Source: Spirochaetales bacterium (GTDB lineage: Bacteria; Spirochaetota; Spirochaetia; SZUA-6; RPPD01). Taken from it: 64,000 nt of DNA. The position numbers and the translations under genes were made by a program. A model generated the notes under the pieces. That model searched no databases. It had not been told where the DNA came from and worked only from the letters and a program-made list of their open reading frames with translations. Every line of letters begins with the position of its first letter. Position 1 is the stretch's first letter. Shown one piece after another: positions 32,307 to 48,381 of this stretch. The stretch lies in the NCBI GenBank assembly GCA_016934415.1, contig JAFGSW010000063.1, positions 20,043 through 84,042 of the forward strand, read 5' to 3'.

Positions 32307-32392
32307 TCGCCCCGCACGAGTCCGCGCGTCCGTTTTCTTGGCACACGGCGCGGAAGAATGTATTTTTAAAGCGAAAGGAAACCGTCACCGCG

Positions 32393-33274
32393 ATGAACGC
32401 CGCCGTCGCCGCCTACTACCACCTCCTCTGGCTGATACGCGGCATCCAGGTGTTCGCCCTCATCGGCCGCAGCGGGACGGGGAAGAGCTTCCGCGCCGCG
32501 CTCATCGCCCAAAAATACAATATCGAGCTCATTCTCGACGACGGGCTTTTGATTCACGATCAGAAAATAATCGCCGGCCGGTCGGCCAAAAGCGAGAAAG
32601 CCTATCTCTCGGCCATCAAGACCGCCCTTTTCGCGGATGAACGCCAGCGCCGGCAAACCATCGACGCCCTCAAGCGATATAAATTCAAGCGCATCCTGAT
32701 CCTGGGCACGTCTTTCGGGATGGTCGCCCGAATCGCCCGCCGGCTGGAGCTCCCCTCGCCGTCACGCGTGATCAACATACAGGACGTCGCCACCGAGGAC
32801 GAAATAAAACTCGCCATGCGCGCCCGGAAAACCGAAGGGAAACACGTTGTCCCCGTCCCGGCCCTGGAAATCAAACGCGATTTCGCCCATCTTATTTACG
32901 AGACCGTCAAGGTGTTTTTCGAGCGGCGCTTTTTCCGATCGAAGAAGCGCAGCGTCTTTGAAAAGACCGTCGTCCGGCCGGAATTCAGCCGGCGCGGGAA
33001 GCTGGAGATATCCGAGACGGCTTTGAGCCAGATGGTATTCCACTGCGTGAGTGAATACAATCCCGCCTTGAGGATTGAAAAACTGATCGTCAAACGCGAG
33101 GCGCACGGGTACATCCTCTCCCTCCACATGCGCGTTCCTTACGGAACCGAGCTCTCAAGCTCTATTCCCCAGCTGCAAAGGTATCTGATCGAAAGCATCG
33201 AAGGGTTCTCCGGGATCCGCCTTTTTCGTGTCGACCTCCTCATTTCGAGAATCGAGCGGCGGAAAAACGAATGA
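32393..33274 (+). CDS. Fusion protein: N-terminal P-loop NTPase/kinase-like domain (HprK-like Walker A) plus C-terminal Asp23/Gls24-like domain
   Basis: Walker A VFALIGRSGTGKSFRAAL. The C-terminal ~110 aa (GKLEISETALSQMVFHCVSEYNPALRIEKLIVKREAHGYILSLHMRVPYGTELSSSIPQLQRYLIESIEGFSGIRLFRVDLLISRIE) follow the Asp23 family pattern. Start chosen at MNAAVAAYYHLL. Confidence 0.6.
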   Translation: MNAAVAAYYHLLWLIRGIQVFALIGRSGTGKSFRAALIAQKYNIELILDDGLLIHDQKIIAGRSAKSEKAYLSAIKTALFADERQRRQTIDALKRYKFKRILILGTSFGMVARIARRLELPSPSRVINIQDVATEDEIKLAMRARKTEGKHVVPVPALEIKRDFAHLIYETVKVFFERRFFRSKKRSVFEKTVVRPEFSRRGKLEISETALSQMVFHCVSEYNPALRIEKLIVKREAHGYILSLHMRVPYGTELSSSIPQLQRYLIESIEGFSGIRLFRVDLLISRIERRKNE

Positions 33275-33290
33275 GTGATTCGGAGGGAAT

Positions 33291-33396
33291 GGAGTACACG
33301 GAGAAAAGAGAGGAGAACGCGGAGGAAAAGGGAAATGCTAGTCATCCCGTTTTTTAGATTCCATCTTTCTCCGTGCTCTCCGTGTCTTTCCTTGAC
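33291..33396. repeat. Long purine-arm/pyrimidine-arm inverted-repeat hairpin element (copy F)
   Basis: ACACGGAGAAAAGAGAGGAGAACGCGGAGGAAAAGGGAAATG ... GATTCCATCTTTCTCCGTGCTCTCCGTGTCTTTCC. Shares the GAGGAAAAG(R)(R)AAATG core with copies E and B. Confidence 0.5.
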
Positions 33397-33537
33397 GGCG
33401 GTCCGTACAAGCAGTTTTTTGTTTTTGGTGCTCCATCTTTCACGTATTTCTTCCGATACTAGTACGGAATGAACCGTATCATCTCAATTGACAGGCTGAT
33501 TTCACCGCACTATGCTTAAAGCCATGAGGGGGAACGT

Positions 33538-34878
33538 ATGAAAACATTGCCGAAACTACTCGCGCTGTTGGCGGCGGCGCTCCTGTTCGTAAACGCCGAC
33601 ACCACCGCCGCGACCTCGCCCGGTGGCGCCATCGCCCAGGTCAATTCGGACCATTACCGGATTTTTTATCAAGGCTCGGATGAGGACGCCCGCCTGTTCG
33701 GCGCGAAGATGGAGAGCTGCCTTGAGCTCTACAATTCAGTGCTCCATTTCGACCTGGCCAAACTGCTGATCAAGCTCAAGGTGCGGATCTTCTCCGACAA
33801 AAGCGGGTTCGACGCGTACTTGAAATCCGTCGTCAAGGAGACCAAGGACGATTTCGTCTACATCCACTATACCGATCTGGCCAGGTGCGAGCTCGTCGGC
33901 TTTCAGAAGACCGTCGAAGCCGATTTCTATACCGCGCTCCTCCATCAAGGCGCCGTTCAATTCCTGAAAGCGTATGTTTCCAATCCTCCCCTTTGGCTCC
34001 AGGAAGGATTGGCCGCGTATTTCGAACAATCTCAGTTTAATGAGGAAAAGAACAAATTCGACCTCCCGTCCGACCTCATCTGGCTTACCAGCCTGAAAAA
34101 ACTCGTGAAAGGCGATTCGGAAAATGCCCTGATCTCTTTCGATTCGTTTCTTGTCATAGACAAGACTCAGGCACAGGCCGATCTGGCTTCCTTCTACCCC
34201 GAGGCTTGGGGTCTCGTCTATTTCCTTCTCCACAGCCAGGATTCGAACATCAACCGGATTCTCTGGGACAGCATTGCGGCGCTCGATCCCGCCTTAAGCG
34301 TGAAGGACAATTCCGCGCGCGTGATGGATAAAGCCTTTTCCTGGTACGGCGTGGACAAGATCGAGACCGCGTTCAAGGACTATTACAACGGACTCAAGAC
34401 GTTGTCCGACCTGGTGGCGGAAGGCGTTTCATATTACAGCGGCAATGAGCTCGACAAGGCCCGTGAATCCTTCACTCAAGCCGAGGGGAGGAACCCCGAC
34501 AACTATATTCCGTATTATTACCTGGGCTTGATCAGCTATAATAAGAAGGATTACGGCAAGGCGGAGACGTTATATCTCAAGGCGCTCGATCTCAAGGCCC
34601 CGGCGGCTCTCATTAACTACGCCATCGGCGTCAACGCGTATGCCGACAACAACTATGATAAAGCGGCGACGTATCTTAAAAACGCCAAAACCGAAGACCC
34701 GAAAAACTACGGCGACAAAGTTGATACCATCCTTTCGAGCATCGAAGGGGAAACCGCCGGCGGCGCCGACGTTTCTCCCTCACCGAATCCTTCTCCCGCT
34801 CCCGCTCCGGAAGCCAGCCCCGCTCCCGTTCCTGATTCCGACTCCGACACCGAGCCCCTGGACGACGAGGAGATGTAG
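33538..34878 (+). CDS. Secreted TPR-repeat protein with a Ser/Pro-rich acidic C-terminal tail
   Basis: Signal peptide. Internal TPR-like repeats (YYYLGLISYNKKDYGKAETLYLKALDL...). Tail SPSPNPSPAPAPEASPAPVPDSDSDTEPLDDEEM. Confidence 0.65.
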   Translation: MKTLPKLLALLAAALLFVNADTTAATSPGGAIAQVNSDHYRIFYQGSDEDARLFGAKMESCLELYNSVLHFDLAKLLIKLKVRIFSDKSGFDAYLKSVVKETKDDFVYIHYTDLARCELVGFQKTVEADFYTALLHQGAVQFLKAYVSNPPLWLQEGLAAYFEQSQFNEEKNKFDLPSDLIWLTSLKKLVKGDSENALISFDSFLVIDKTQAQADLASFYPEAWGLVYFLLHSQDSNINRILWDSIAALDPALSVKDNSARVMDKAFSWYGVDKIETAFKDYYNGLKTLSDLVAEGVSYYSGNELDKARESFTQAEGRNPDNYIPYYYLGLISYNKKDYGKAETLYLKALDLKAPAALINYAIGVNAYADNNYDKAATYLKNAKTEDPKNYGDKVDTILSSIEGETAGGADVSPSPNPSPAPAPEASPAPVPDSDSDTEPLDDEEM

Positions 34879-34905
34879 GTTTATTCACCGACCCCCGAAC
34901 CTATC

Positions 34906-34942
34906 AAGCGGCGCGCCGATAAACGGGCGCCGCTTTTTTTTC
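34906..34942 (+). terminator. Rho-independent terminator
   Basis: AAGCGGCGCGCC-gataaac-GGGCGCCGCTT followed by TTTTTTTT. Confidence 0.8.
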
Positions 34943-35029
34943 GCGCTTTACATTCACACGCTTTCCGATTAATCTGGAGCACGTCTTCCGAAAACACGGG
35001 CTTCCGCCCCGGAGAAAGAGGTAGCCTTC

Positions 35030-36340
35030 GTGAAATCACCTATCGAACCGAAACTCCTCAAGGGCTTCCGCGATTTCCTCCCCGAAAGTGAGATCGTGCG
35101 AAAATCCATGACGAGGAAATTGGAAACCGTCTTCGAGCAGTTCGGATTCGTCCCCATCGATACTCCGGCGATCGAATACGCCGAGATACTGCTCGGCAAG
35201 AGCGGCGGCGAAACGGAAAAGCAGATCTATTCCTGGAGAGATCAGGGGGGACGCCGCGTGGCGCTCCGCTTCGACCTGACTGTTCCATTCGCCAGGTTCC
35301 TGGCCCAGCACCGGCCCCGCCTTGTTTTCCCCTTCAAACGCTACCACATCGCGAAAGTGTGGCGTGGAGAAAATCCCCAGGCCGGCCGCTATCGTGAATT
35401 CATGCAATGCGATTTCGACATCGTCGGCGCGGATTCCGTCTCCGCCGACGCCGAAATCCTGCTTGTCGTCTGCCGCAGCTTCAAGTCGCTCCGCATCGAA
35501 GATTTCAAGATTCACGTTTCCCACCGCGGGGCGCTTAATGATTTTCTCTCTTCACTCGGCATTGCCGACCGTTCGGCCGACATCCTGCGTCTCGTGGATA
35601 AATCGAGAAAAATCGGGCCTGAGAAGACCTCCTCCGAACTCGCCGCTCTCATCGGTCCCGAAAAAACGGATTCGATCCTCGATTTTATCTCATTCGTCGA
35701 TTCAAATGAACTGGCTCTTCAAAAAATGGCCGGCATCCTCGGAGAAGACAATTCCCACGTCGGACGGCTCAGGGACGTGTACGCCTGTTTCCGAGAATTG
35801 GGTATGGCTCACTACCTCGTCTTCGATCCTTCCATCACCCGCGGCTTGGATTATTATACCGCTCTCGTGTTCGAGACCTTCGTCGCCGGCGCCGAGGGAA
35901 TGGGCTCTGTGTGCAGCGGCGGCCGGTATGACAACCTCGTCTCCGTGTATTCGAAAGAGAAGCTCTCCGGAATCGGCGGATCGGTGGGGATCGACCGGCT
36001 GCTTGCCGTGATCGAGGAACTCGGCGAGCTCCCCTCCTGGAAGGGGAAGACGCAGATCGTCATCCCCGTCGTTGACGAGGACCTTGCTCGCTATTACCAC
36101 AAGCTGGCCGAAATGCTGAGGAGCGAGGGCTTCAATGTGGAAGTGTTCCATGAAAAACTCAAGCTGGCCGCGCAATTCACGCTGGCCGAGAAAAAAGGCA
36201 TACCCTGCGCGGTGATCGTCGGCGGCCGGGAACGGGAACGCAATGTCGTCCAGGTCAGGGATTTCGCCACCCGTTCCAATTTCGAGAATCTCTCCGTACC
36301 GGAAGCCATCGTCAAGCTTAAGGGTATCCTGCAGGTGTGA
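35030..36340 (+). CDS. hisS: Histidyl-tRNA synthetase
   Basis: GTG start with AGAGG ribosome-binding site. Class II aaRS motifs (..LKGFRDFLPE.., ..RYHIAKVWRGENPQAGRYREFMQCDFD..). Confidence 0.9.
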   Translation: MKSPIEPKLLKGFRDFLPESEIVRKSMTRKLETVFEQFGFVPIDTPAIEYAEILLGKSGGETEKQIYSWRDQGGRRVALRFDLTVPFARFLAQHRPRLVFPFKRYHIAKVWRGENPQAGRYREFMQCDFDIVGADSVSADAEILLVVCRSFKSLRIEDFKIHVSHRGALNDFLSSLGIADRSADILRLVDKSRKIGPEKTSSELAALIGPEKTDSILDFISFVDSNELALQKMAGILGEDNSHVGRLRDVYACFRELGMAHYLVFDPSITRGLDYYTALVFETFVAGAEGMGSVCSGGRYDNLVSVYSKEKLSGIGGSVGIDRLLAVIEELGELPSWKGKTQIVIPVVDEDLARYYHKLAEMLRSEGFNVEVFHEKLKLAAQFTLAEKKGIPCAVIVGGRERERNVVQVRDFATRSNFENLSVPEAIVKLKGILQV

Positions 36341-36642
36341 TCGTCATGTTACGTGCCGCGTCCGGCCCCCGTGAAGAAGCCTTCACCATCGCCGTCAAGG
36401 TGATTCCCTCGGCGCCCGGTAACCGTTTCGCCGGATACCAGGGAAAGGAACTGGTGGTGAAAATCGCCGCCCCGCCCGAGAAAGGCAAGGCGAACAAGGA
36501 GTTGATCGCCTTTTTTTCGAAATCGCTCGGCATCTCCAAAAGCGGCGTCGCATTGCTTCGCGGCGAAACGTCCCACCACAAGCTTCTGAGCCTTCCATTA
36601 TCAAGCCGGGAGGCCCTGGAACGCATCCTCTCTCCCGAATGA
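36337..36642 (+). CDS. DUF167/YggU-family small protein
   Basis: ...IPSAPGNRFAGYQGKELVVKIAAPPEKGKANKELIAFFSKSLGISKSGVALLRGETSHHKL matches the DUF167 pattern. Overlaps the hisS stop. Confidence 0.7.
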   Translation: MIVMLRAASGPREEAFTIAVKVIPSAPGNRFAGYQGKELVVKIAAPPEKGKANKELIAFFSKSLGISKSGVALLRGETSHHKLLSLPLSSREALERILSPE

Positions 36643-36660
36643 TGCGCTTGAGATAATTCG

Positions 36661-36786
36661 ATAAGGAACCCAGGAAACCAGGCAAAGAATCCTGAGGGAA
36701 AAGAATGAAACATGACGCTGCATATATCTGAGACCGGTTTGTTTTCATATTTTTTGTTTCCTTTCTTGGTTTCCCGGCTTCCTTAT
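36661..36786. repeat. MITE-like element copy B (126 bp)
   Basis: Left ATAAGGAACCCAGGAAACCAGG. Right CTTGGTTTCCCGGCTTCCTTAT, an imperfect reverse complement. The interior contains GAGGGAAAAGAATGAAAC, related to copies E and F. Confidence 0.6.
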
Positions 36787-37161
36787 AGATTCTTCCGAAC
36801 TGAATTCCAAAAAAGGGGGTGGTAAACCGGCAGGCTGATTGACAAACGGATATCCCAAAGTTATAGTAAAGTACTGGATTCGATCGTTTTGAAACGGCGC
36901 CGGAAATCCGGCGAGGCATTTCCCGTTACGGCGATTTTCTTTTTCATCGGAAAAGGATCCTCTGAAAACTCCATGACCTTCGGGTTCTTGAGTCGTCGAA
37001 GGATCCCGCGCCGGGGCAATACGCCCCTTTTATGAAGGAACGAGCGCGTCCCAGGCGGCCCGTGATGGCTCCTGAATCGGGAAAGAATACCCTTAAAGAC
37101 GACAGTTTTTTGGGGACCCTCAAATCATCAACCCCTTTCGGGGGGGACAAAGGAGTCCAGT

Positions 37162-39240
37162 ATGAGCTACGCCACCTCTTCCATCAGGAATATCGCTTTG
37201 TGCGGACACGGGAGCACGGGAAAAACCACGCTCACCGAGCAGCTGCTCGCGACCGGCGGCGCCATTTCCAAGGCGGAGGCGGTCGAATCGGGAAAATCGA
37301 CGAGCGATTTTACCGAAGAGGAAATCGCGAGAAAAATATCGATTCATACCTCGCTTTCGAATCTCGTTTGGAACGGCGTGAAGATCAACGTCCTCGATAC
37401 GCCGGGCGTGGCCGATTTCGTGGGCGAGGCGGTGGCGGCGTACCGGGCCGCCGAGTGCGCCATCGTGCTCGTCGGCGCCGACGTGGGCGTGCAGATCGAA
37501 ACCGTTAAAATCTGGCGGCGCCTTTCCAAAATCCAGTACCCGCGGGTCTTTTTCGTCAACAAGATGGATAAGGAACACGCCGATTTCGAGAAAACATTGG
37601 CCGATCTGAAGGGCAAATTCAACGCCTCCTTCGTCCCCGTCTCCATCCCCATCGGCAAGGGAGCGGGATTCAAGGGCGTCATCGATCTTCTTAAAATGAA
37701 GGCCTCTACTTCGGGCGAAAACGCAAAATCGGCCTCCGAGGATATCCCGGCCGATATGGTTGCGGAGGCCAAAAAATACCGCGACGCGCTCATTGAGGCG
37801 GCGGCCGAGGGCGACGACAAGCTCATCGAAAAATTCTTCGCCACCGGCACCTTGTCGGAAGAAGAGATTCTCACCGGCCTGCGCAAGGCCCTGGCAAACG
37901 GCAGACTTTTTCCTGTGCTCTGCGGCGCGGCGGTGGACAATCGCGGCGTCGCCGCCCTGCTCGACTTCATCGTCACCGCCTGTCCGTCTCCCGGCGGCGA
38001 GGTCAAGGGGTTCGATCTGAAGGGTCAGGAAACCGTTCGCCGCGTCGATTCTTCCGAACCGCTCTCCTGCTTCCTGTTCAAGACCGTCATCGACCAGTTC
38101 TCCGGCCGGATGTCGTTCGTCAAGGTCGTCTCCGGCAAATTGTTGAACGACTGCGACCTCATCAACGTCCGCGGCGAAAAGAAGGAAAAGTCCGGGAAGC
38201 TTCATTCCCTGATCGGGAAAAAACTCACCGACGTCGACGCGCTCGAAACCGGCGACATCGGCGTGCTCCTGAAACTCCAGAGCGTCGCCACCAATGACAC
38301 GCTCTGTACTCCCGATTCACTCGTGAAATACGAGCCGCTCGCCCTGCCCCAGCCCGTTCACGGGGTGGCCATATCCGCGACGTCGAAAAAAGAAGAAGAC
38401 AAACTCAACCAGATGCTTCAGCGCGCCGCCGAAGAGGACCCGACCTTCAAGCTTTCCTTCAACGCTGAAACCAAGGAAACGGTCGTTTCCTGCATGGGCG
38501 AACTCCACCTTTCCATCGTCCTCGACAAGATCAAGGAAAAACAAAAGATCGATATCGAGACGCGCATCCCCAAAGTGGCCTACCGCGAAACCCTGCAGGC
38601 GGCCTCGGGCGCCGAATATACGCACAAGAAACAGACCGGCGGCCACGGCCAGTATGCCAAGGTCGTCCTTGAAATCGCGCCCCTGCAGCGGGGCGAACAG
38701 TTCAAATTCGTCAACGCCATCTTCGGCGGGGCCATTTCGAAAGGCTACGTGGCGGGCGTCGAGAAGGGCGTCATCGAGGGCATGGAACACGGCATTCTCG
38801 CCGGTTACCCGATCGTTGATTTGGAAGCCAAGGTCGTGGACGGCAAGGAACACCCGGTCGATTCGTCGGAAATGGCCTTCAAGCTCGCCGCGCGCGGCGC
38901 GCTCAGGTCCGCCATGGAAAAAGCCAAGCCCGTGCTCCTTGAGCCGGTCATGAACCTCACCGTCTACGTGGACGAGAATTACCTGGGAGACATACTCTCG
39001 GACATTTCCAGCCGGCGCGGCAAGGTGCTCGGCCAGGAGCCGATCGGGGGAGGCATCCTCGAAGTGCGCGCCCAGGTGCCGCAGTCCGAACTTCTTCGCT
39101 ATTCGATCGACCTCAAATCGATCACCTCGGGGACGGCGTCCTTTGAGATTGAATTCGATCACTACAGCCCCATTTCGGGCAAGATTGCCGACGACGTAAT
39201 CAAGGCGGCGCAGGTGGCCAAGGAAGAGGCGAACGCTTAA
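37162..39240 (+). CDS. fusA: Elongation factor G family GTPase (stand-alone paralog, EF-G2-like)
   Basis: G-domain AHGSTGKTT...DTPGVADF...NKMD. 692 aa. AAAGGAG ribosome-binding site. Not located in an str operon context. Confidence 0.85.
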   Translation: MSYATSSIRNIALCGHGSTGKTTLTEQLLATGGAISKAEAVESGKSTSDFTEEEIARKISIHTSLSNLVWNGVKINVLDTPGVADFVGEAVAAYRAAECAIVLVGADVGVQIETVKIWRRLSKIQYPRVFFVNKMDKEHADFEKTLADLKGKFNASFVPVSIPIGKGAGFKGVIDLLKMKASTSGENAKSASEDIPADMVAEAKKYRDALIEAAAEGDDKLIEKFFATGTLSEEEILTGLRKALANGRLFPVLCGAAVDNRGVAALLDFIVTACPSPGGEVKGFDLKGQETVRRVDSSEPLSCFLFKTVIDQFSGRMSFVKVVSGKLLNDCDLINVRGEKKEKSGKLHSLIGKKLTDVDALETGDIGVLLKLQSVATNDTLCTPDSLVKYEPLALPQPVHGVAISATSKKEEDKLNQMLQRAAEEDPTFKLSFNAETKETVVSCMGELHLSIVLDKIKEKQKIDIETRIPKVAYRETLQAASGAEYTHKKQTGGHGQYAKVVLEIAPLQRGEQFKFVNAIFGGAISKGYVAGVEKGVIEGMEHGILAGYPIVDLEAKVVDGKEHPVDSSEMAFKLAARGALRSAMEKAKPVLLEPVMNLTVYVDENYLGDILSDISSRRGKVLGQEPIGGGILEVRAQVPQSELLRYSIDLKSITSGTASFEIEFDHYSPISGKIADDVIKAAQVAKEEANA

Positions 39241-39310
39241 TTCCGGCTCCGCCGGAAATTAAGCGACATGAACAAGCCGTAAGAAAATGGATTGAGTGCC
39301 TATTCAAAAA

Positions 39311-39345
39311 GAGGCCGCCGGTTCCGCCGGCGGTCTCTTTTTTTG
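39311..39345. terminator. Bidirectional rho-independent terminator between the EF-G gene (+) and hypE (-)
   Basis: GAGGCCGCCGG-ttcc-GCCGGCGGTCTC flanked by AAAAAG on the left and TTTTTTT on the right. Confidence 0.75.
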
Positions 39346-39354
39346 ATTCTATCT

Positions 39355-40377
39355 TCAGCAGATGCGCGGCAGCATGTCCGCAACGAGCATGTCGACAATG
39401 CGCGTTCCGCCCGCCTTTGTATTCAAATACACCCGGCTTAAAGGATCGTCGGTGACTGTGCCGATGATGGCCGCGTCCTTGGATGCTGGCCGTGAACCCA
39501 AGTGCGCGAGGATGTCTTCGGCCGTATTTTCCTCACAGACGAGGATGAACTTTCCTTCGTTCGCGAGGTACAACGGATCGTAACCGGTCAATTCGCACAA
39601 TGCCAGCACCTCGTCGCGCACGGGCAGCGCCGATTCGTCGATTTCAATCGAACATGTGGAGGATCGCGCCAACTCAACCAACGTCGTAGCCAATCCGCCG
39701 CGGGTGGGATCGCGCATGAAGCGTACGGCCGGCGGCGGGAACCGTTCGAGGGTTGCGAGAACGACCCCGGACAGGGGCCGGCAATCGCTCTCGATCTCAA
39801 ATGAGACGGGAAAATCGCCCCTGGCCTTCATGATGGCGGCGGCGTGGTCGCCGAGCGTCCCGCTCACGATCACCCGGTCTCCGGGCCGGACGGCGAGAGG
39901 CGAAAGCGCGGCTCTGAATTCGCACGTGCCGATCCCGCTCGTGTTGACGAACAGGCCGTCGGCTTTTCCCCGCGGCACGACCTTGGTGTCCCCCGTGACG
40001 ATCGCCACGCCGGCCTCGTCCGCCGCGATCTTCATCGAGCGGACGATCGCAGCCATATCTTTGAGGGGAAATCCGTCCTCGATGACGAAGGCGGCGCTCA
40101 AGTACCTGGGCCGGGCGCCGGCGACGGCGAGGTCATTGACCGTGCCCGACACGGCGAGCCGTCCGATGTCTCCTCCCGGGAAAAACAGCGGCTGCACCAC
40201 GTACGAATCGGTCGTGAAGGCCAATCCGTATTCGTGCGCGGGCAGAATGGCGCTGTCAAGCAAAGCCTCGAGGAAACGATTGTCGAGCGCCGGCAGAAAC
40301 GTCTTTTCGATGAGATCATGCATGGCCTTCCCGCCGTTGCCGTGGGCGAGGGTGATCGTCTTGCCTTTGGATGTCAT
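39355..40377 (-). CDS. hypE: Hydrogenase maturation protein HypE
   Basis: N-terminus MTSKGKTITLAHGNGGKAMHDLIEK. AIR-synthase-like fold. C-terminus ...PRIC with the conserved terminal cysteine. Confidence 0.9.
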   Translation of the reverse strand: MTSKGKTITLAHGNGGKAMHDLIEKTFLPALDNRFLEALLDSAILPAHEYGLAFTTDSYVVQPLFFPGGDIGRLAVSGTVNDLAVAGARPRYLSAAFVIEDGFPLKDMAAIVRSMKIAADEAGVAIVTGDTKVVPRGKADGLFVNTSGIGTCEFRAALSPLAVRPGDRVIVSGTLGDHAAAIMKARGDFPVSFEIESDCRPLSGVVLATLERFPPPAVRFMRDPTRGGLATTLVELARSSTCSIEIDESALPVRDEVLALCELTGYDPLYLANEGKFILVCEENTAEDILAHLGSRPASKDAAIIGTVTDDPLSRVYLNTKAGGTRIVDMLVADMLPRIC

Positions 40378-40406
40378 TTATCTTTTCACCTTCAGTTAAT
40401 AATTCT

Positions 40407-40623
40407 AAAAGGAAACCAGGAAAAATTACAGTGAAAATAAACACTCCTCATCATGACCCAACGAACCATATTTTCAGGAAGCTCAGAGCAGAAATAATGA
40501 AAATAAATTATCTACAAAATGGTCAACTGAATTTTAACATAAATAGTTATTGTTTTTTCAAATTTTTCTGAACGTCTTTTCGTTTTCATATTTTTCTTTT
40601 TTCCTGGATTCCTGGTTTCCTTA
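40407..40623. repeat. MITE-like element copy C (217 bp)
   Basis: Left AAAAGGAAACCAGGAAAAA. Right TTTTCCTGGATTCCTGGTTTCCTTAT. AT-rich interior that shares GTTTTCATATTTTT with copy B. Confidence 0.65.
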
Positions 40624-40642
40624 TTATTTCCTTTTGAGAGAA

Positions 40643-41563
40643 TTACGTCCCCTCGATCACCACCAGACCGCCCAGGCGGCGCGGATCGAGGTTCACTGTT
40701 TTAACGAGTTTGGCCATGGCCTCTCTGGGAAAGGACGCATCTCGAACGAATTCACTTCCAATCTGCCAAAAGGCTTTTTCCTGTTCCAGCCAGCGAACGA
40801 CGGCGCAGAAAACCATTTTCTTCCCGATTCCGCCGACAGCGTCGACTTGGACGCTGATGATCCCGCCCTGCTCCAGGCTGTCGCGACTCAAGAGAAGCAA
40901 TTTTGCGCCCTCCGTGGATATGTCGATCAGGTATCCATCGATTGAATTATTCACGACCGCCTTGGTGAAAATGCTGTGCCGTTGGAGCCGCCGTAGGTAC
41001 ATTCCGGACTCGACGGGTTTCACTTCCGCCTCGTTCCCGACTTTCGTCATTCTCTTGGCGGCGGTAATTCGCGTGCCGGCCACGCTCCCCCCGCCCTTCC
41101 ACGCGCACTCTTTTCCTTCCCGGTCGATGAAGACGAGATGAAAGGCGTCGAGGGCGATTTTGGCCGAAAGGAGGCCGATTCCGAACCGGTTGAAGCCGTG
41201 GCGTTCGCGATATTCCTGAAATTTAAGACTCGTAAAGTCCGGTTTTTTCGATTCGTCGTTGATGTCGATCGGAAGGGTTGAGAGATCGAATCCGCCCCCG
41301 AAATCCGTCACGATGATCTTCAGGAAATTTCCGGAAACCATGAGGTCGACCGATACTTCCTTGTCGATCTTCCGCTCATGGAGGGCGCGCAGGGAATTGG
41401 TCACGAGCTCGGTAAGGGCGTACCGCAGGATGATATTATCGGATTCCTTGACCGGGAAATCGATGAGCTCGAGTATTTTAAAAAAATCCGAGCCGTTCAG
41501 TTTGGGCGAAAAATGAATGAACAATTCCGTGTAGCAGTTGCCCTTGTAGACGATGTAGTTCAT
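40643..41563 (-). CDS. Fusion protein: GHKL/HATPase_c (anti-sigma-factor/serine-kinase-like) N-domain plus PilZ c-di-GMP-binding C-domain
   Basis: N-domain ...ILRYALTELVTNSLRALHERK...IIVTDFGGGFD. C-domain RRLQRHSIFTKAVVNNSIDGYLIDISTEGAKLLL (PilZ RxxxR ... D/NxSxxG). GGGAG ribosome-binding site. Sits between hypD and hypE. Confidence 0.65.
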   Translation of the reverse strand: MNYIVYKGNCYTELFIHFSPKLNGSDFFKILELIDFPVKESDNIILRYALTELVTNSLRALHERKIDKEVSVDLMVSGNFLKIIVTDFGGGFDLSTLPIDINDESKKPDFTSLKFQEYRERHGFNRFGIGLLSAKIALDAFHLVFIDREGKECAWKGGGSVAGTRITAAKRMTKVGNEAEVKPVESGMYLRRLQRHSIFTKAVVNNSIDGYLIDISTEGAKLLLLSRDSLEQGGIISVQVDAVGGIGKKMVFCAVVRWLEQEKAFWQIGSEFVRDASFPREAMAKLVKTVNLDPRRLGGLVVIEGT

Positions 41564-41700
41564 ATGGCTCCCATAGAATTATATCCATTCTTCAAAAAAT
41601 AAAAAGATCATATTTCATAAAACCTTCGGGAGTCTTTTCCGGGAGACGGCCTCTCGCGCCGGCTCGATCGATCCCGGAAACGCGAACGATGATTCGTTTC

Positions 41701-42792
41701 TCAGGCGTCCCGATACGAGTAATGGATGCCGCAGGCGCCCTCGGCGCTCACCATGCAGGCCCCGAGGGGATTGTCCGGCCGGCAGGTCCGCGCGAACAGA
41801 GGGCAGGCGGGCGGGTCGATCGTCCCCCGCATCACGTCTCCGCACCGGCAGCCCGGGTATTCACGGGGCGGCGGAAGCTCCACCGGGAATCTTCGGTCGG
41901 CGTCAAATCGCGTGTAATCGACCTTGAGCTCCAGGCCCGAACCGGGGATGTTTCCCAGCCCCCGCCAGACCGCGTCCGCAGGAACAAACACGCGCTCCAT
42001 GACACCCCTGGCGGCCGGGTTTCCCTCCCGTCCCACGACGCGCGTGTATTCGTTCTCAACCTCTCCCCGTTTTTCCCTCACCTGGCGCAGGAGCATGAGG
42101 ATGGAGCGCAGCATGTCGGTGGGCTCGAAGCCCGAGACGACGCACGGCACGTGAAATTCGTCCGCGAGGGGCTCGTAGATACGGCCGCCGGCGACGGCCG
42201 TGACGTGGCCCGGACAGATGAAACCGTCGATACGGACGGTCGGGCTCTCGAGCAGGGCGCGCATGGCCGCGGGCATGGTTTTGAGGGCGGTGAGCAGGCT
42301 GAAATTGCGGAGTCCCCGTTCCTCTGCTTCGATCACTGCCGCGGCCGCGGTTGGAGCGGTGGTCTCGAATCCGATGCCGAGAAACACGACCTCCCGCTCC
42401 GGGTTCGCTTGGGCGAACGCCACCGCTTCGAGTGGCGAGAGACATATCCGGATGTCGGCCCCCCTCGCCTTGGCCTCAAGCAGCGAACCGTCCGTCCCCG
42501 GCACGCGCAGCATGTCGCCGAAGGTGGCGACGACGATGCCGGGTCGGGCGGTGAGGGCGAGAGCGGTATCAATGTACCGTTGCGGTGTGACGCACACGGG
42601 ACAGCCGGGGCCGCTCTTCAAGCTCAGCCCCTCGGGGAGAAGCTTCGCGAGTCCGTACTTGAGGGCAGTAAGGGTATGGCCGCCGCAGATTTCCATGAAG
42701 GCGAGCTCTTGCTTCGGCATGAGGCTGCGGATGTCGGCCGCCAGGGCGCGCGATCCGGCCGCGCTGCGAAATTCCTCCATGTACCGGATCAT
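41701..42792 (-). CDS. hypD: Hydrogenase maturation protein HypD
   Basis: Start at MIRYMEEFRS. Motifs GPGCPVCV, CPGHVTAV, FEPTD. Fe-S C-terminus. Confidence 0.9.
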   Translation of the reverse strand: MIRYMEEFRSAAGSRALAADIRSLMPKQELAFMEICGGHTLTALKYGLAKLLPEGLSLKSGPGCPVCVTPQRYIDTALALTARPGIVVATFGDMLRVPGTDGSLLEAKARGADIRICLSPLEAVAFAQANPEREVVFLGIGFETTAPTAAAAVIEAEERGLRNFSLLTALKTMPAAMRALLESPTVRIDGFICPGHVTAVAGGRIYEPLADEFHVPCVVSGFEPTDMLRSILMLLRQVREKRGEVENEYTRVVGREGNPAARGVMERVFVPADAVWRGLGNIPGSGLELKVDYTRFDADRRFPVELPPPREYPGCRCGDVMRGTIDPPACPLFARTCRPDNPLGACMVSAEGACGIHYSYRDA

Positions 42793-43025
42793 TCGTTTTT
42801 CGCCTTCCCTTCGGCCTCCTCGATTTCCCGGAAGAGACGGATCGATTCGGCGGCGTCCTCCTGATCGAGTTTCTGGATGGCGAAACCGGCGTGTACAATG
42901 ACGTAGTCTCCCGGGACTATATCGGGTAGCAATCGGAAGCTCACTTCGTACGTCACACCGCCCGCCTCGACGACGCCCTTGTCGCTTTCTATCGTTTTGA
43001 CTTCCATGGGAATGGCCAGACACAT
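42789..43025 (-). CDS. hypC: Hydrogenase maturation protein HypC
   Basis: Internal start MCLAIPMEV.... 78 aa. Confidence 0.85.
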   Translation of the reverse strand: MCLAIPMEVKTIESDKGVVEAGGVTYEVSFRLLPDIVPGDYVIVHAGFAIQKLDQEDAAESIRLFREIEEAEGKAKNE

Positions 43026-43038
43026 ATCGAAATACCCC

Positions 43039-45363
43039 CTATCCCACGTTTTCCGCGGCCACGACCGCCTGTCCAAGGGCCAACCCTCCGTCATTGCAGG
43101 GCACCCGCTCGTGAACAATCGGTTTCAGGCCGTTATGCTCGATCCTCAGTGCCAGACCTTCGAGCAGGGTCATGTTCATGAAACAACCGCCGCTCAAGAC
43201 GACGTCTTTCAAACCCGTTTTCCGGGCGACGGTTGATACCGTTGAGGCGAGAACGTCCGCCAGACCACGGTGGAATTTCCCCGAGATAGTCGCGGACGAC
43301 GTTCGCTTTCTGGCGTCCATTGCCGCGGACAGAACGACGCCCCGCCAGTCGATGACAATGCCGTCCGATTTTTCTTCGATCGAAAAACGATATCCGTTTT
43401 CATCGCCGGATCCATTTCCCGCAAACGCCTGTTCGAACTCGATCGCCGGCTGGCCCTCGTAGCGGGCTTCGAGGCAGACGCCGGAAATGGCCGACATGGC
43501 GTCGAAGAGTCGGCCGCAACTCGACGTGACCGGCAGCGATAACGATGATTCCAGCTGGGCGGCTGTCACCGCCAGCTTTTGTTCGGGGATACCGGAAAGC
43601 GACGGCGGTAACACGTCCCGCCAGCCGTTTCCGCACGCCTCCCTGAGACAGGCCGCCGCCATGCGCCACGGTTCGCGAACGGCAAGATCCCCGCCCGGCA
43701 TAGCGACGGTTCCCAAATGCGCCCGGCGCTCGAAACGGGCGCGGTCGGCGACGAGTATCTCCCCGCCCCAGACGGTGCCGTCCGTTCCCAGGCCCGTCCC
43801 GTCGAGCGCCACGCCGATGACGGGCCCCCGCAGGCCCCGCTCGGCCATGCAGCTCGCAATATGCGCGTGATGGTGCTGGACCGGGAATTTGAGGGCCGCC
43901 GCCGCCCATTCGAAATCCGGGGGTGGATCGAGCGCGAACTGCGTCGAAAGGTACTGCGGGTGCAGGTCGTGCGCGATGAGCGACGGGGTCACGTCAAGAA
44001 GGGCGAGGAAATGGCGGATCGCATCCAGAAACGCCCGGTAGGTTTCGCGGTCCTTGAGGTCGCCGACGTGCTGACTTAAGAATGCCGAATCGCCGTGGGC
44101 GAGGCAGACGGTGTTTTTCAACTCGGCGCCCACGGCCAGCACCGGGCGCTTGAGCGCAGTCCGCATCACGACCGGGGAGGGCGTGAAGCCCCTCGCCCGC
44201 CTGATCGGGTAATCGCCTCCCCGGAACAGCCGGACGACCGAATCGTCGGCTCTGGTCTGGATGTCCCGGTCACCCTGGAGAAAATAATCGCATATGGGTG
44301 AAAGCCTGTGCAGCGCCTCGTCGTTCCGGCAGGCTATCGGTTCGTCGGAAAAATTGGCGCTGGTCATGACGAGCGGAACGTCGATTCGCGAGAAGAGGAG
44401 GTGCTGGAGCGGCGTGTAGGGGAGCATGAGTCCGAGTGTCGACGATCGGGGGGCGACCGCCTCCGCCAGCCCATGCCCTGGTTTTTTCGGCAGGAGCATG
44501 ATCGGGGCGTCGACGTCGAGAAGGCGCCGTTCCTCGGTTTCCCCGAGCTCGACGAGCCGCCGCGCCGACTCAATGTCCCTCACCATCACCGCCAAAGGCT
44601 TCTCCTCGCGGCGCTTGCGCCAACGAAGGGCGGCGACCGTTTTTTCGTCGTCGGCCCGGCAGGCGATATGAAATCCGCCCAGACCCTTGACCGCGATAAT
44701 GGCGCCGCCGGAAAGCATGGCTGCGGTCCTTTCGATGAGGTCTTTAACCGATGAGGAATCGACGCCGCGGACGATCGTCACGCCGTTGCGGTCGCAGAGA
44801 CTGACATGCGGTCCGCAAACGTGGCAGGCATTGGGCTGGGCGTGGAAGCGCCGGTCGGCCGGGTCGCTGTATTCGCGCTCGCATTCGGGGCACATGGGGA
44901 ACGAAGACATCGTCGTATTGGCCCGGTCGTATGGAATGTCCCGAACGATGGTGAAACGGGGGCCGCAATTGGTGCAGTTGATGTAAGGATAGAAAAACCG
45001 CCTGTCGCGCGGATCAAATAGCTCCCTTCGGCAATCGGGGCAGAGGGCGAGGTCGCGTGAAATCCTGACGATCCGGACGTCGTCCGCGCGGCTCTCCTCG
45101 ATGGTGAACCCGTCAAAGACGGGCGGATTTTCGACCGTGACGCTCTCCACGGATTCCACCCTGCTCTGCGGCGGCGGAGTCTCCCGGACGGCCCGCTCCA
45201 GGGCGGCCACGGCCTCCTCCGTCCCCTGGGCGAGGATCTCGACGCAGCGCGTGGTGTTGGCGACGGTCCCCATGATCCCCAGACCCGCCGCCCGGTTGTA
45301 GACGAAGGGCCTGAAGCCCACTCCCTGAACGACTCCTTTGACGATAATGCGCTTGGTGATCAT
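43039..45363 (-). CDS. hypF: Carbamoyltransferase HypF
   Basis: Start at MITKRIIVKGVVQGVGFRPF (acylphosphatase domain), an ATGA overlap with the hypB stop. Two zinc-finger pairs, YrdC and Kae1-like domains. The 212-aa ORF-track N-terminal extension is arginine-rich and probably spurious. Confidence 0.9.
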   Translation of the reverse strand: MITKRIIVKGVVQGVGFRPFVYNRAAGLGIMGTVANTTRCVEILAQGTEEAVAALERAVRETPPPQSRVESVESVTVENPPVFDGFTIEESRADDVRIVRISRDLALCPDCRRELFDPRDRRFFYPYINCTNCGPRFTIVRDIPYDRANTTMSSFPMCPECEREYSDPADRRFHAQPNACHVCGPHVSLCDRNGVTIVRGVDSSSVKDLIERTAAMLSGGAIIAVKGLGGFHIACRADDEKTVAALRWRKRREEKPLAVMVRDIESARRLVELGETEERRLLDVDAPIMLLPKKPGHGLAEAVAPRSSTLGLMLPYTPLQHLLFSRIDVPLVMTSANFSDEPIACRNDEALHRLSPICDYFLQGDRDIQTRADDSVVRLFRGGDYPIRRARGFTPSPVVMRTALKRPVLAVGAELKNTVCLAHGDSAFLSQHVGDLKDRETYRAFLDAIRHFLALLDVTPSLIAHDLHPQYLSTQFALDPPPDFEWAAAALKFPVQHHHAHIASCMAERGLRGPVIGVALDGTGLGTDGTVWGGEILVADRARFERRAHLGTVAMPGGDLAVREPWRMAAACLREACGNGWRDVLPPSLSGIPEQKLAVTAAQLESSLSLPVTSSCGRLFDAMSAISGVCLEARYEGQPAIEFEQAFAGNGSGDENGYRFSIEEKSDGIVIDWRGVVLSAAMDARKRTSSATISGKFHRGLADVLASTVSTVARKTGLKDVVLSGGCFMNMTLLEGLALRIEHNGLKPIVHERVPCNDGGLALGQAVVAAENVG

Positions 45364-46043
45364 GGCCGCGAATTCACAGTATACGGCATTGACCGCCTCC
45401 GTCCAAGCAGCCATTCTGCGAACCGCTCGGTCCCCTCTCCCGAGACGGCCGAACATTCGAAGACGGGCACCTCGGCGTTGACGGCGCTGATATTGTCCCG
45501 GTAGCGTTCCAGGCTCACCGGCAGGTGCGGGATGAGATCGGTCTTGGCGATCACCGCCGCGATCGCCTCCCGGAAAAGGAGCGGGTACTTGAGCGGCTTG
45601 TCCTCGCCTTCGGTGACGCTCAAGACCGCAATCTTTCCGTTTTCGCCGATGTCGAATTCCGCCGGGCAGACGAGGTTGCCGACATTTTCCACGAACACGC
45701 AGACGCCTTCGCCCGCCTCCGGGAGAGGGAGATCTTCCAGGGCTTGAAAGACCGTCTTCGCTCCCAGGTGGCAGGCGCCGTGGGTGAGGATCTGAACGGC
45801 GGGTATGTGGAGCGCCAGGAGCCGGTCGGCGTCCCGGGTGGTTTCCACGTCCCCCTCGAGCACGAAACAAGACAGCCGTTCGCGGAGAAACGGGATGAGA
45901 CGTTCGAGAAGGGCGGTTTTCCCCGAGCCTGGCGAACCGATGATGTTCCACATCACCGCGCGTTTCTCTGCCAGGAAAGCCCTGGTCCGGGCCGCCCATT
46001 CCTCGTTCGCGCTGAGTACGTTCTTATATACCTTCAGGTTCAT
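45360..46043 (-). CDS. hypB: Hydrogenase nickel-incorporation GTPase HypB
   Basis: P-loop GSPGSGKT. ENVGNLVCP motif. Start chosen at MNLKVYKNVL. Confidence 0.85.
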   Translation of the reverse strand: MNLKVYKNVLSANEEWAARTRAFLAEKRAVMWNIIGSPGSGKTALLERLIPFLRERLSCFVLEGDVETTRDADRLLALHIPAVQILTHGACHLGAKTVFQALEDLPLPEAGEGVCVFVENVGNLVCPAEFDIGENGKIAVLSVTEGEDKPLKYPLLFREAIAAVIAKTDLIPHLPVSLERYRDNISAVNAEVPVFECSAVSGEGTERFAEWLLGRRRSMPYTVNSRP

Positions 46044-46407
46044 CGTCCGCAATCTCCATGTCCTCGATATACAGTTCATTGCCCGAGATCGTTTCCACCG
46101 CTCCCCGTCCGCAGCGGCCGCACAGAAAGAACGGCGCCTCGATCTCCCCTTCCCAGCCGCAGGTACGGCAGTGGACGGCGAGTGGAATTTTCTTCAATTC
46201 CAGAGCCGCTCCCTCGAACGCCGTACCAGGGGTGAGCGCTTCCCAGGCGAGAAGAAAGCTCTCCGTCACGATCTGGTGGATCTGCCCCATCACGATTCGC
46301 ACTCTGATGACGCGCGCCGCCCGGGAGCCTTTTTTCCCGGCTTGGGACCTTTCGTACTCGGCGGCAAGCGTCTTGAGCATCGATTCGCACATGGAAAGCT
46401 CATGCAT
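46024..46407 (-). CDS. hypA: Hydrogenase nickel-insertion protein HypA
   Basis: MHELSMCES N-terminus and two CxxC pairs (CRTCG ... CGRCG). Confidence 0.85.
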   Translation of the reverse strand: MHELSMCESMLKTLAAEYERSQAGKKGSRAARVIRVRIVMGQIHQIVTESFLLAWEALTPGTAFEGAALELKKIPLAVHCRTCGWEGEIEAPFFLCGRCGRGAVETISGNELYIEDMEIADDEPEGI

Positions 46408-46879
46408 CACCCGCGACCTTTTTCACCAACCCGGTTTCGGACGCGATCTCCTTCAGATACTCGTCAAAACGGCATTCGAGCGAGGCTGACAAGCCGCGGC
46501 CCAATTCGATCCGTTCCGGCTCGATCCCGAAAAAAACGATTTCCGGCGGCCCCGAGCCCACGCGTCCCGCGACATTGACGATCTCGAAGACGTCGCCCTC
46601 GTGCAAGCTCATGTGCCGCAGGACCTTCTTCGAACGGGCTTCGTCGCGAGTGAATTTGATTATCGTTCCCGGTTTTTCGCCCATGAGCGCGCAGTCGATG
46701 ATGACGGCCTTGGCTTTGTTTTCAAGCACGTGCACCACATTGAAAAGGGACGTGCCGAGGTCATACACCTCGACGCCCGAGCAATCATAGCGGCGCTCAA
46801 GCTCTTCGGCCAGCCGCCCGCCGATGCCCTCGTCCCCGGCAAGCGGGTTTCCCAGACCGACGACGGCTATTTCTGCCAT
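46400..46879 (-). CDS. [NiFe]-hydrogenase maturation endopeptidase (HyaD/HybD/HycI family)
   Basis: Internal start MAEIAVVGLGNPLAGDEGIG.... About 159 aa. The ORF-track N-terminal extension runs into the hairpin element. Confidence 0.8.
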   Translation of the reverse strand: MAEIAVVGLGNPLAGDEGIGGRLAEELERRYDCSGVEVYDLGTSLFNVVHVLENKAKAVIIDCALMGEKPGTIIKFTRDEARSKKVLRHMSLHEGDVFEIVNVAGRVGSGPPEIVFFGIEPERIELGRGLSASLECRFDEYLKEIASETGLVKKVAGDA

Positions 46880-46891
46880 ATGCTCATCACT

Positions 46892-47034
46892 CCCGTAAAA
46901 AACAGCCACAGAGGCACTGAGGACACAGAGAGGAAAAGAAAATGAGGAAAGAAAATTTCCAATAAATTCTCCTTCCTTTCTTTTTATCATTTTCTTTTTG
47001 TCTTCTCTGTGCTCTCTGTGTCTCCGTGGCTGTC
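46892..47034. repeat. Long imperfect inverted-repeat hairpin element (copy E) between hydA and the maturation protease
   Basis: Arms ACAGCCACAGAGGCACTGAGGACACAGAGAGGAAAAGAAAATGAGGAAAG and CTTTCCTTTCTTTTTATCATTTTCTTTTTGTCTTCTCTGTGCTCTCTGTGTCTCCGTGGCTGT, centred on AATTTCCAATAAATTCT. Confidence 0.55.
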
Positions 47035-47085
47035 CTTTTCTTCCCCGCTAGGTGAAGTCACGTCGCGCGCAAAGCCGACGAAAAA

Positions 47086-48381
47086 TCACACGAACTCGAC
47101 ATCCAGATAATGCGTGGAGCAGGAGATGCAGGGGTCGTACGCGCGGACAAGCATCTCCATGAGGAGCCTGATTTCGTCCTGCGGCTTGTCGATGATCTTC
47201 GGCACCAGGGATTCGAAGTCTTTCTGAATGTTCCCGTGATTCTGGCCGGTGGGGATGCAGATATTGGCCGACGTGCACATTCCCTTGCCGTCGAATGCAT
47301 AGCGGTGGAAAAGAATGCCGCGCGGAGCCTCCACGCTTCCCACCCCCTCGCCTTCGCGCGGCGCGGCCTTGGGCGTCTCCGGCGTGACGCCGTCGGTAAG
47401 GACGCCGTCGATGAGCCGGATCGAATGGGCGATGACCTGGGCGATCTCCACGACCTGGGCCACGCTGTTGAGGTAGGGGTTGCAGGCGCCCTTTTGAAGG
47501 CCGAACTTCGCCGCCACGGCCTTGGCCTCGGGAAGGAGGAGATCGGCATTGATATTGTACCGGGCGAGGGCGCCCACGGCGTATGAGTCCCTGTGCCACT
47601 TGCACCACTTGGCCGTCGATTGGGCGGAAACGTACTCATTCGCCACCGATTCGAACTTATGAACGTCGGTGGTCTCCTTGACGTCGGTGGAGGCGATGTC
47701 TCCGTGGTAGAAGGTGTATGTTCCGTCCGTTTTCAGCGCGACATATTCGGTATCACGGTTGAAATCCGGAAGCTTGTCCGCCAGGCTCACGACCACATCC
47801 GCCAGAATCCCGACCAGCTTCATGCCGTTCTCGAGATCTTTTTTATAAGCCTTCAATTGCGCTTCCGTGGGGAGCTTGGCGAACCCGCCGGGCTTGACGG
47901 TCACCGGGTGCGTCATCCGCCCTCCGATGAGCTCCATGCCGGCGTTGCCGAGCTTGTGCAGTGCTATGACGGTCTTCACCACGTCCGGATGCGATGCCAC
48001 GAGCGGAACGACGGATTTCTGGCCCAGGAGATCGGGCGCCACCAGGTAACCGACGTGCAGGACGTGACTTTCGATCTGCTCGGCGTAGTGCAGAACGATG
48101 CGAAGCGCGTCGGTCTGCTTCGAGACGGTGACGCCGATGGCGTCCTCCACGGCCTTGATGGCGGCGAGCGAGTGGGTCACGGAGCAGATGCCGCAGATGC
48201 GTGAGACGATGGTCTGGATGTCTTCGTAACTCCGCCCCCGCACCATGGCTTCGAAGAAGCGCGGAGCCTCCGGCACCCGCCACTCCACCCGTTCTATCTT
48301 CCCGTCGGAGGCGCGCACGCGGATCGTGCCGTGGCCCTCCACCCGGGTGACATGGTGTACGCTTACATCAATATTCGGCAT
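47086..48381 (-). CDS. hydA: [NiFe]-hydrogenase large (alpha) subunit, group 3b-like
   Basis: N-terminal RICGIC and C-terminal DPCISCSTH Ni-Fe ligand motifs. 431 aa. Confidence 0.9.
   Translation of the reverse strand: MPNIDVSVHHVTRVEGHGTIRVRASDGKIERVEWRVPEAPRFFEAMVRGRSYEDIQTIVSRICGICSVTHSLAAIKAVEDAIGVTVSKQTDALRIVLHYAEQIESHVLHVGYLVAPDLLGQKSVVPLVASHPDVVKTVIALHKLGNAGMELIGGRMTHPVTVKPGGFAKLPTEAQLKAYKKDLENGMKLVGILADVVVSLADKLPDFNRDTEYVALKTDGTYTFYHGDIASTDVKETTDVHKFESVANEYVSAQSTAKWCKWHRDSYAVGALARYNINADLLLPEAKAVAAKFGLQKGACNPYLNSVAQVVEIAQVIAHSIRLIDGVLTDGVTPETPKAAPREGEGVGSVEAPRGILFHRYAFDGKGMCTSANICIPTGQNHGNIQKDFESLVPKIIDKPQDEIRLLMEMLVRAYDPCISCSTHYLDVEFV

Follow-up and report, generated by a model that had tools for sequence, protein, structure and literature searches.

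A cross-phylum paired-arm hairpin repeat at the hydA-hycI junction of a Spirochaetales hydrogenase operon

In a Spirochaetales metagenome-assembled genome (MAG; GCA_016934415.1), the operon for a group 3b [NiFe]-hydrogenase and its maturation proteins contains a long hairpin, element E (46902-47033, minus strand), and a weaker relative, element F (33286-33400, plus strand), lies elsewhere in the same 64-kb stretch of contig JAFGSW010000063.1 (positions 20,043 to 84,042), which we call the window and whose numbering is used throughout. The locus raises the question of whether E is a regulatory device of the operon in which it sits or a copy of a repeat that came to lie there. The present study favors the second answer. 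Specifically, we lean toward a reading in which E, which is intact, and F, which is decayed, are copies of a dispersed non-coding palindromic repeat, selfish or semi-domesticated and similar to repetitive extragenic palindromic (REP) elements or miniature inverted-repeat transposable elements (MITEs), any effect of E on the operon being a by-product. The behavior of the family appears REP/MITE-like because its members are multicopy, share interiors only within genomes and lie between unrelated housekeeping genes.

Elements E and F

Folding, its inverted repeat and a profile search identify E as a full hairpin copy of a repeat family whose paired arms each consist of three TCTCYGTG-N units. A long imperfect inverted repeat spans the region (arms 46897-46954 and 46981-47038), and RNA of the minus strand, which is the mRNA strand, is predicted to form a nearly continuous single hairpin with a helix of about 60 bp and a minimum free energy of -78.1 kcal/mol (z -7.8). 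The plus strand gives -70.7 kcal/mol (z -8.3), both strands folded as single-stranded DNA give z values of about -7 to -8, and in a 150-nt sliding fold corrected for G+C content E is the strongest outlier of the window. The stable hairpin that an earlier note had read into this sequence, and for which it had named folding as a check, was thus borne out. Rfam at gathering score has no matches in the window, and with an E-value threshold the sole matches of E are generic hairpin models of miRNA precursors, with scores far under the cut-offs.

The well-conserved arm of E, TTCTCTGTGCTCTCTGTGTCTCCGTGG (47003-47029, plus strand), is composed of the units TTCTCTGTGC-TCTCTGTGT-CTCCGTGG and fits positions 1-28 of the family arm profile (nhmmer E = 1.3e-8); on the mRNA strand E reads GCCACGGAGACACAGAGAGCACAGAGAAG, in agreement with the family consensus. 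The purine arm, CCACAGAGGCACTGAGGACACAGAGAGG (46906-46933, plus strand), also has three tandem units and is more diverged (nhmmer E = 1.9 at best). The description of such arms as runs of CAC(A/G)GAG(R) holds, but the opposite arm is their reverse complement and not, as had been stated, their mirror image. Between the arms lies an interior of 69 nt (46934-47002), a nested palindrome of A/G-rich against T/C-rich sequence that holds the block GAGGAAAAGAAAATGA, common to F. At the other end of the hairpin, the stem base on the mRNA is formed by CAGCCACGGAG and CUCUGUGGCUG, and the strand continues ..CUCUGUGGCUG-UUUUUU-AC, with a U6 tract (46897-46902, minus strand) directly 3' of the hairpin as a terminator-like tail. 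The Shine-Dalgarno-like motif GGGAG (46890-46894, minus strand) follows outside the hairpin, 10 nt before the ATG of hycI (46879); like the U tract, it was read from the sequence. With a stable predicted stem, a G+C-rich base and an immediate U tract on the transcribed strand, E has the makings of a putative intrinsic terminator; a consensus terminator scanner (at most 20 pairs, loops of 3-8) flagged only its apical part. A T-rich tail is present on the plus strand too.

F, identified by folding, alignment and profile search, is a truncated copy with two of the three units per arm, lacking the outer CCAC/GTGG unit, around an interior of about 60 nt. Its pyrimidine arm, TTCTCCGTGCTCTCCGTGTCT (33367-33387, plus strand), is an exact instance of the family 21-mer (nhmmer E = 7e-5, positions 1-21). 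As RNA it folds with z values of -3.5 and -2.8, and as single-stranded DNA with -2.4 and -1.7, so that the hairpin claimed for F found weak confirmation (RNA z -3.5), in a copy both decayed and truncated. E and F have in common the exact 21-mer TTCTCYGTGCTCTCYGTGTCT in the pyrimidine arm and, beside the purine arm, the block GAGGAAAAG(RR)AAATG, which had 0 matches in 200 block shuffles; their overall alignment is poor. A search for the block GAGGAAAAGAAAATGAGGAAAG, also suggested as a check, found it within the window in E only, and its three metagenome matches are unrelated regions that combine a ribosome-binding site with an ATG. F starts 12 nt past the stop of an unannotated open reading frame (ORF; 32279-33274). 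A TPR gene (33538-34878), preceded by a promoter-like site (33488-33516), is located downstream of F.

The block GAGGAAAAG..ATG itself resembles a ribosome-binding site with a start codon. It opens an ORF of 7 codons in E (46942-46965, plus strand), antisense to the operon, and one of 45 codons in F (33335-33472, plus strand) that runs through the pyrimidine arm; both were treated as incidental.

A family of paired arms in many phyla

The exact 21-mer of the arm was searched against GTDB representatives, one genome per species, and was found in more than 120 genome stretches or species genomes among the matches listed, from which all family counts (125 instances, 120 evaluable, 85 paired) are drawn. 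Each arm of the family is about 31 nt long and comprises three tandem 8-9-nt units (TCTCYGTG-N), and the two arms of a pair are inverted around a variable interior, with the consensus TTCACCACRGAG-R-CACRGAG-RR-CACRGAGAA ... TTCTCYGTG-CT-CTCYGTG-T-CTCYGTGGTGAA. The 10 nt that follow the search pattern are conserved as C-Y-G-T-G-G-T-K-A-A in the 125 instances, six of these positions being one fixed base in 99-118 of the 125 and the rest Y, K or A (75-77 of 125). A complementary purine arm lies within 600 nt in 85 of the 120 evaluable matches, giving elements of 56-469 nt (median about 105); the remaining 35 arms are without a partner. The arms of a pair covary at the variable R:Y positions and at the first two flanking positions (each p <= 0.0025 against permuted partners). 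Because of the conserved 10 nt beyond the pattern, the partner arms and the covariation, these matches are not chance matches.

By record titles, the family occurs in at least 13 phyla: Planctomycetota, Chloroflexota, Acidobacteriota, Pseudomonadota, Desulfobacterota, Armatimonadota, Verrucomicrobiota, Bacteroidota, Fibrobacterota, Spirochaetota, Cyanobacteriota, Gemmatimonadota and Hydrogenedentota. It is found on plasmids or chromids of cultured Calothrix, Nostoc, Anabaena, Gloeocapsa, Pseudoalteromonas, Bacteroides and Burkholderia and in 14 IMG/VR viral contigs, and is absent from 5,426 complete Escherichia coli genomes. Host G+C content ranges from 32 to 71%, and the idea that the choice of A or G in the arm tracks it was rejected (rho 0.03). 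Rfam found only a tRNA in nine loci that hold an element, and no relevant paper was found to contain 12-15-mers of the arm.

Copies within one MAG have common interiors (L052/L070, L004/L044 and L014/L037, and L008/L071 in opposite orientation), while copies from different genomes have the arms alone in common; several MAGs yield three or four contigs with copies. The window holds two copies in 64 kb, both intergenic, and in the family as a whole crude ORF calls, which cover 87% of the loci, leave 55 of 85 elements outside, a strong intergenic enrichment. The nearest neighbors are housekeeping genes, among them those for SHMT, PGK, AccA and aconitase, and no Pfam family occurs in more than two of 114 neighbors. 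No transposase, integrase or RAYT was among the 25 most frequent of the 146 Pfam families of the 114 nearest-neighbor ORFs, and clustering of all ORFs of the 120 loci gave no recurrent family that could be a linked enzyme, only ABC ATPases, kinases and housekeeping enzymes. In stretches of up to 8 kb around unpaired arms, no arm pair more than 600 nt apart encloses an ORF as an autonomous insertion sequence (IS) would. Direct target-site duplications were not found; instead the flanks are complementary (TTCA..TGAA, TTAA..TTAA, TTGAA..TTCAA), a complementarity that fades within about 3 nt. Of 29 co-directional contexts, 16 had the more stable fold on the sense strand and 13 on the antisense strand (p = 0.28), and G.T and A.C mismatches are equal in number; selection on a single RNA strand therefore has no evidence in its favor. 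A palindromic interior was considered as a constant feature and rejected, since the interior is strongly palindromic in 19 of 57 elements.

Arms also occur in other arrangements. Solo purine arms have an ORF start within 80 nt in 18 of 36 cases against 26 of 75 in an internal control, an excess that is not significant; in five IMG/VR contigs (L135, L136, L138, L140 and L144) and in L045, unpaired purine arms stand 4-50 nt before start codons in the sense TTCACCACRGAG..GAGAA-N-ATG. Some interiors, or the sequence beside unpaired arms, contain other short-unit arrays (CGCTAAT, CGCAGAT, CACGAAGG, GTTGACA), and family arms adjoin arrays of further units in L075 (about 3830-3900), L078 and L068 (GTTGACAG/GTTGATAG, CACGCTGAY and GCGCGATA). 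On a megaplasmid of Pseudoalteromonas shioyasakiensis (CP076682.1; L129:1320-2249), an EAL-domain gene has four tandem units of about 240 nt downstream of it. One family hairpin and a spacer of about 110 nt are present in each of at least the first two that were read, and the array region matches 10 places in that replicon. A Caldilineaceae MAG (L094, about 5100-5370) has three unpaired pyrimidine arms, spaced by 99-133 nt, within a larger tandem repeat that includes a small hairpin, CCGATTTCCACAATCGG.

Within the window, E and F had been described as a second class of hairpins related to a first. Four class-1 hairpins, with arms of tandem AGGAAWCC/AAGGAAWCCAGGAA, are present at 19530-19710, 36658-36789, 40397-40626 and 55725-55915. 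What they share with E and F is architecture, namely arms of tandem 8-9-nt units, and not sequence homology: the block said to link E and F to copy B holds only as a looser pattern with an indel and does not exceed chance, because coding sequence around 4062 matches the loose pattern just as well, and BLAST gave no other similarity of E or F to class-1 hairpins. The class-1 motif AAGGAAWCCAGGAA has 13 matches in the window against 0.9 expected and none in 134 loci taken from other genomes. Because of this absence the class-1 hairpins, unlike the class of E and F, look lineage-specific, and their motif was ruled out as a part of the cross-phylum family. After E, the strongest folds of the window include two perfect 18-bp inverted repeats with loops of 3 and 7 nt (12454-12492 and 12651-12693) in AT-rich intergenic sequence. 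A bidirectional canonical intrinsic terminator, AAAAAGAGGCCGCCGG..CCGGCGGTCTCTTTTTTT (39290-39345), separates the convergent ORFs 37162-39240 (plus strand) and 39355-40377 (minus strand), and this organism therefore also uses ordinary short terminators.

The hydA-hycI junction and competing explanations

By NCBIfam and Pfam, the minus-strand gene order is hydB (50983-49967), hydG, hydD, hydA, hycI, hypA, hypB, hypF ... hypD. On the mRNA, E lies downstream of hydA, which encodes the hydrogenase large subunit (47086-48381, minus strand), and upstream of the gene for the hycI-type hydrogenase maturation protease (46400-46879, minus strand). Its reported position inside the operon proved correct, E occupying a spacer of 206 nt from the hydA stop (47086) to the protease start (46879). 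This junction was compared across orthologous operons of the same synteny, DctP / hydBGDA-hycI-hypA-hypB-hypF, which is conserved among the relatives compared. The spacer is 12 nt in a relative with 85% hydA identity, 12 and 19 nt in two relatives with 82% identity, and 6, -8, 15 and 46 nt in four further lineages; none of these seven lineages, the closest relatives included, has a hairpin at the junction. Because their spacers measure -8 to 46 nt against 206 nt here, E is an insertion gained in this Spirochaetales lineage, at an ancestral junction that was tight and probably translationally coupled. Besides the window, only L126/L127, another Spirochaetales lineage (75% hydA identity), has a long spacer among the operons compared, of 108 nt. 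There the junction (L126:5300-5395) carries a different tandem-unit hairpin with CGCRRAG-type units, CACGCAGAG-CACGCGGAG-TGCGCAAAG ... CTTTGCGAT-CTTCGCGAT-CTTTGCGAG (RNA z -4.6), whose fold is marginally favored on the sense strand (-37.9 against -36.0 kcal/mol); its presence suggests either an independent gain or a preferred site of landing or selection.

Some 50 further nt between the hydA stop and E (47034-47085, minus strand) likewise have no counterpart at the orthologous junctions. Part of this stretch is GACTTCACCTAGCGGGGAAG, in which TTCACC is similar to the end of a family element, and it may be what is left of an earlier copy.

How might such an insertion affect the operon? In the transcript E would form a hairpin of about 60 bp with U6 on its 3' side. 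Its arrival would have broken the translational coupling of hydA and hycI, the hairpin with its U tract could end some transcripts or make transcription pause, the long helix could be cut by RNase III, and the 3' end of the upstream hydBGDA message could be protected. The net result would be lowered expression of hycI-hyp relative to the structural genes, tolerated or mildly useful as a by-product of insertion and not the reason for which the element exists. Attenuation, RNase III processing and 3'-end stabilization are physically plausible because a stable hairpin is transcribed in the operon with U6 directly after it. REP stabilizers occur in malEFG. The proposed effects rest on analogy with REP stabilizers of this kind, with Correia/ERIC elements and with the STRR hairpins of cyanobacteria (PMC2670836). 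An insertion of about 130 nt that has turned a tight junction into a 206-nt spacer with a stable hairpin and a U tract is a natural experiment on how the ratio of structural to maturation proteins is adjusted by intergenic repeats.

The earlier note had seen in E a means of uncoupling structural from maturation gene expression, and we consider it quite unlikely that E is a dedicated cis-regulatory RNA, whether attenuator, processing site or stabilizer, selected for this purpose. The great stability of E on the mRNA strand, the U6 that follows and the position of the hycI Shine-Dalgarno motif outside the stem would suit that role, as would the lack of a promoter-like site between E and hycI, so that the downstream genes depend on read-through. 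The slightly sense-stabler hairpin at the same junction in L126/L127 points the same way, and STRR hairpins between hupS and hupL and REP elements in malEFG offer analogues. Yet a hairpin is lacking there in seven lineages with the orthologous operon, the closest relatives among them, the same element stands at unrelated loci in many phyla, and the family has no sense-strand bias in stability; for these reasons E is probably not a device belonging to this operon, any operon effect being a side effect of insertion. Termination could also be the purpose of the family at large, its members being portable, often bidirectional terminators or insulators kept because they end transcripts, a proposal that we regard as improbable. 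T-rich tails (at least 5 T in 8 nt) adjoin 32% of element sides against 6% of random positions, an enrichment overstated because the random control is mostly coding DNA. Such tails occur on both sides in 12 of 83 elements, and A-rich tracts lie upstream; E has its U6 on the mRNA strand and a T-rich tail on the plus strand, and F follows a stop codon by 12 nt and is itself followed by a promoter-like site. Against this, half of the elements have no T-rich tail at all, divergent and convergent contexts are equally common (7 each), and a full terminator at E would silence hycI-hyp.

If the arms act as double-stranded DNA, they could be binding-site arrays for a protein, be it a global regulator, a nucleoid-associated protein or a domesticated recombinase. 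This explanation is unlikely, in our view, but has several observations in its favor: each arm has three contiguous 8-9-bp units, the spacing within pairs varies, solo arms persist, and extreme conservation of the arm is combined with a free interior and with independence of host G+C content. Ribbon-helix-helix repressors, MetJ and omega among them, typically have arrays of tandem 7-9-bp operators. The similar sites of Geobacter metallireducens have been annotated as putative IHF sites, binding of IHF or HU having been proposed (Aklujkar et al., PMC2700814). The IHF consensus WATCAANNNNTTR, however, occurs in none of 83 family elements and in neither E nor F; a purely double-stranded site would not require the covariation of arms and flanks; no candidate protein was found beside the elements, and the neighboring genes have no common function. 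Finally, E and F could resemble each other, and everything else, by chance, as purine-rich low-complexity sequences. Their poor alignment beyond the 21-mer and a 16-nt block and the biased composition of the arms are in keeping with this, but no shuffle folds as well as E. Chance similarity was rejected on the conservation of the 10 nt outside the search pattern and on the partner arms in 85 of 120 listed matches, and its probability appears vanishingly small.

Several observations weigh against the dispersed repeat that we favor. Neither a transposase nor a target-site duplication nor an autonomous partner came to light at the loci examined, so that "mobile" is inferred from distribution alone, and the different hairpin that L126/L127 carry at this junction may point to selection for such a structure there. 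E and F are both more stable on the sense strand. In some genomes the repeated unit exceeds the arms, as in Anaerolineae (L036/L052/L070), or a 4 x 240-nt tandem array includes the hairpin, as in Pseudoalteromonas; therefore, the arms are not always the termini of the element. Last, a near-invariant arm of 31 nt across phyla is unusual for REP elements or MITEs and could mean that a conserved host factor binds it.

Comparison with known repeat systems

Hairpins with tandem-repeat arms have been described in cyanobacteria as STRR hairpins, for example between hupS and hupL, with proposed roles in transcript stability, coupling and termination (PMC2670836). E resembles them as an intergenic hairpin with short-tandem-repeat arms inside a hydrogenase operon. 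However, STRR hairpins have 7-bp units of other sequences and are described only for filamentous cyanobacteria, whereas the units here are 8-9 nt long and the host is a Spirochaetales MAG, and the conserved 31-nt arm common to many phyla is a feature of the present family that is not reported for STRR. REP elements, with the related BIME and REPIN forms, are short multicopy extragenic palindromes that are co-transcribed with operons, can stabilize upstream mRNA and are targets of IS110-family insertions (in part PMC3733652 and PMC3116915). Their genomes have an associated RAYT, a Y1 HUH transposase whose gene usually has REPs on its flanks. Each REP unit is a palindrome of 20-40 bp, in contrast to the consensus arms, which alone fold at only -1.3 and -3.2 kcal/mol. 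The GTAG/CGTC tetranucleotide of REP and REPIN elements lies in the terminal 10 nt of only 2 of 83 elements, and REP families are lineage-specific while this arm is common to many phyla. MITEs such as Correia/NEMIS and ERIC elements measure 60-300 bp, have terminal inverted repeats and are non-coding and intergenic. Once transcribed they form hairpins, which can be cleaved by RNase III, end transcription or change the stability of the mRNA. The family is like them in its terminal inverted repeats, small size, lack of coding capacity and many copies, and unlike them in that neither a target-site duplication nor an IS with corresponding ends was found at the loci examined, that interiors are not conserved between genomes and that the arms sometimes lie inside a larger repeat unit.

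The closest counterpart is found in the genome paper of G. metallireducens (Aklujkar et al. 2009, PMC2700814, Additional file 8), which lists 21 pairs of "class 2" sites (Gmet_I2xxA/B), each with three tandem TCTCCGTS[Y] repeats. These sites are paired on opposite strands at variable spacing, intergenic and multicopy, with an occasional unpaired vestige. The same source describes class 1 sites of four GTTGCTYN units, near which IS110-family elements insert, and class 3 sites of five MTYCTGA units, one pair of which lies between proB and proA; all three classes were considered unique to G. metallireducens and labelled putative binding sites for a global regulator or IHF (PMC2700814). The E arm TTCTCTGTGC/TCTCTGTGT/CTCCGTGG fits the three-unit class 2 consensus, F does so with two units, and E, F and the family share the pairing on opposite strands, the variable spacing, the multiple copies and the mostly intergenic location. 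By contrast with the sites as published, the family is present in at least 13 phyla and is without the IHF consensus, and E mostly uses the T variant of the unit (TCTCTGTG). This comparison was made with the published consensus and with a copy from a Geobacter MAG (L007), not with the G. metallireducens copies themselves; TCTCCGTG has no occurrence in the searchable text of the supplement, where the alignment is not searchable as sequence. Judged by consensus, the arm of E and F is the same arm as that of class 2, and E and F are putative new members of a family that was noticed but never explained.

It is conceivable, though we hold it as a tentative idea on the doubtful side, that the element is not a lineage-specific REP element or MITE but a single ancient or highly transmissible module, near-invariant along 31 nt across at least 13 phyla and also among phage contigs through a widespread trans-acting factor that recognizes arrays of 8-9-nt units. 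Such a factor could be a domesticated recombinase, an HUH enzyme, or a nucleoid or RNA-binding protein. If this is true, then the class-1 hairpins of the window and the class 1 and class 3 sites of Geobacter would be sister systems with unit sequences of their own. A repeat noted a single time before, in supplementary material of a 2009 paper on the genome of one species, now spans Bacteroides, cyanobacteria, Planctomycetota, Chloroflexota, Acidobacteriota and Spirochaetota. Because its arm is nearly invariant across phyla with no linked enzyme, and because REP and MITE families are normally narrow in host range, the constancy and spread of the arm form a question that can now be addressed and that merits follow-up.

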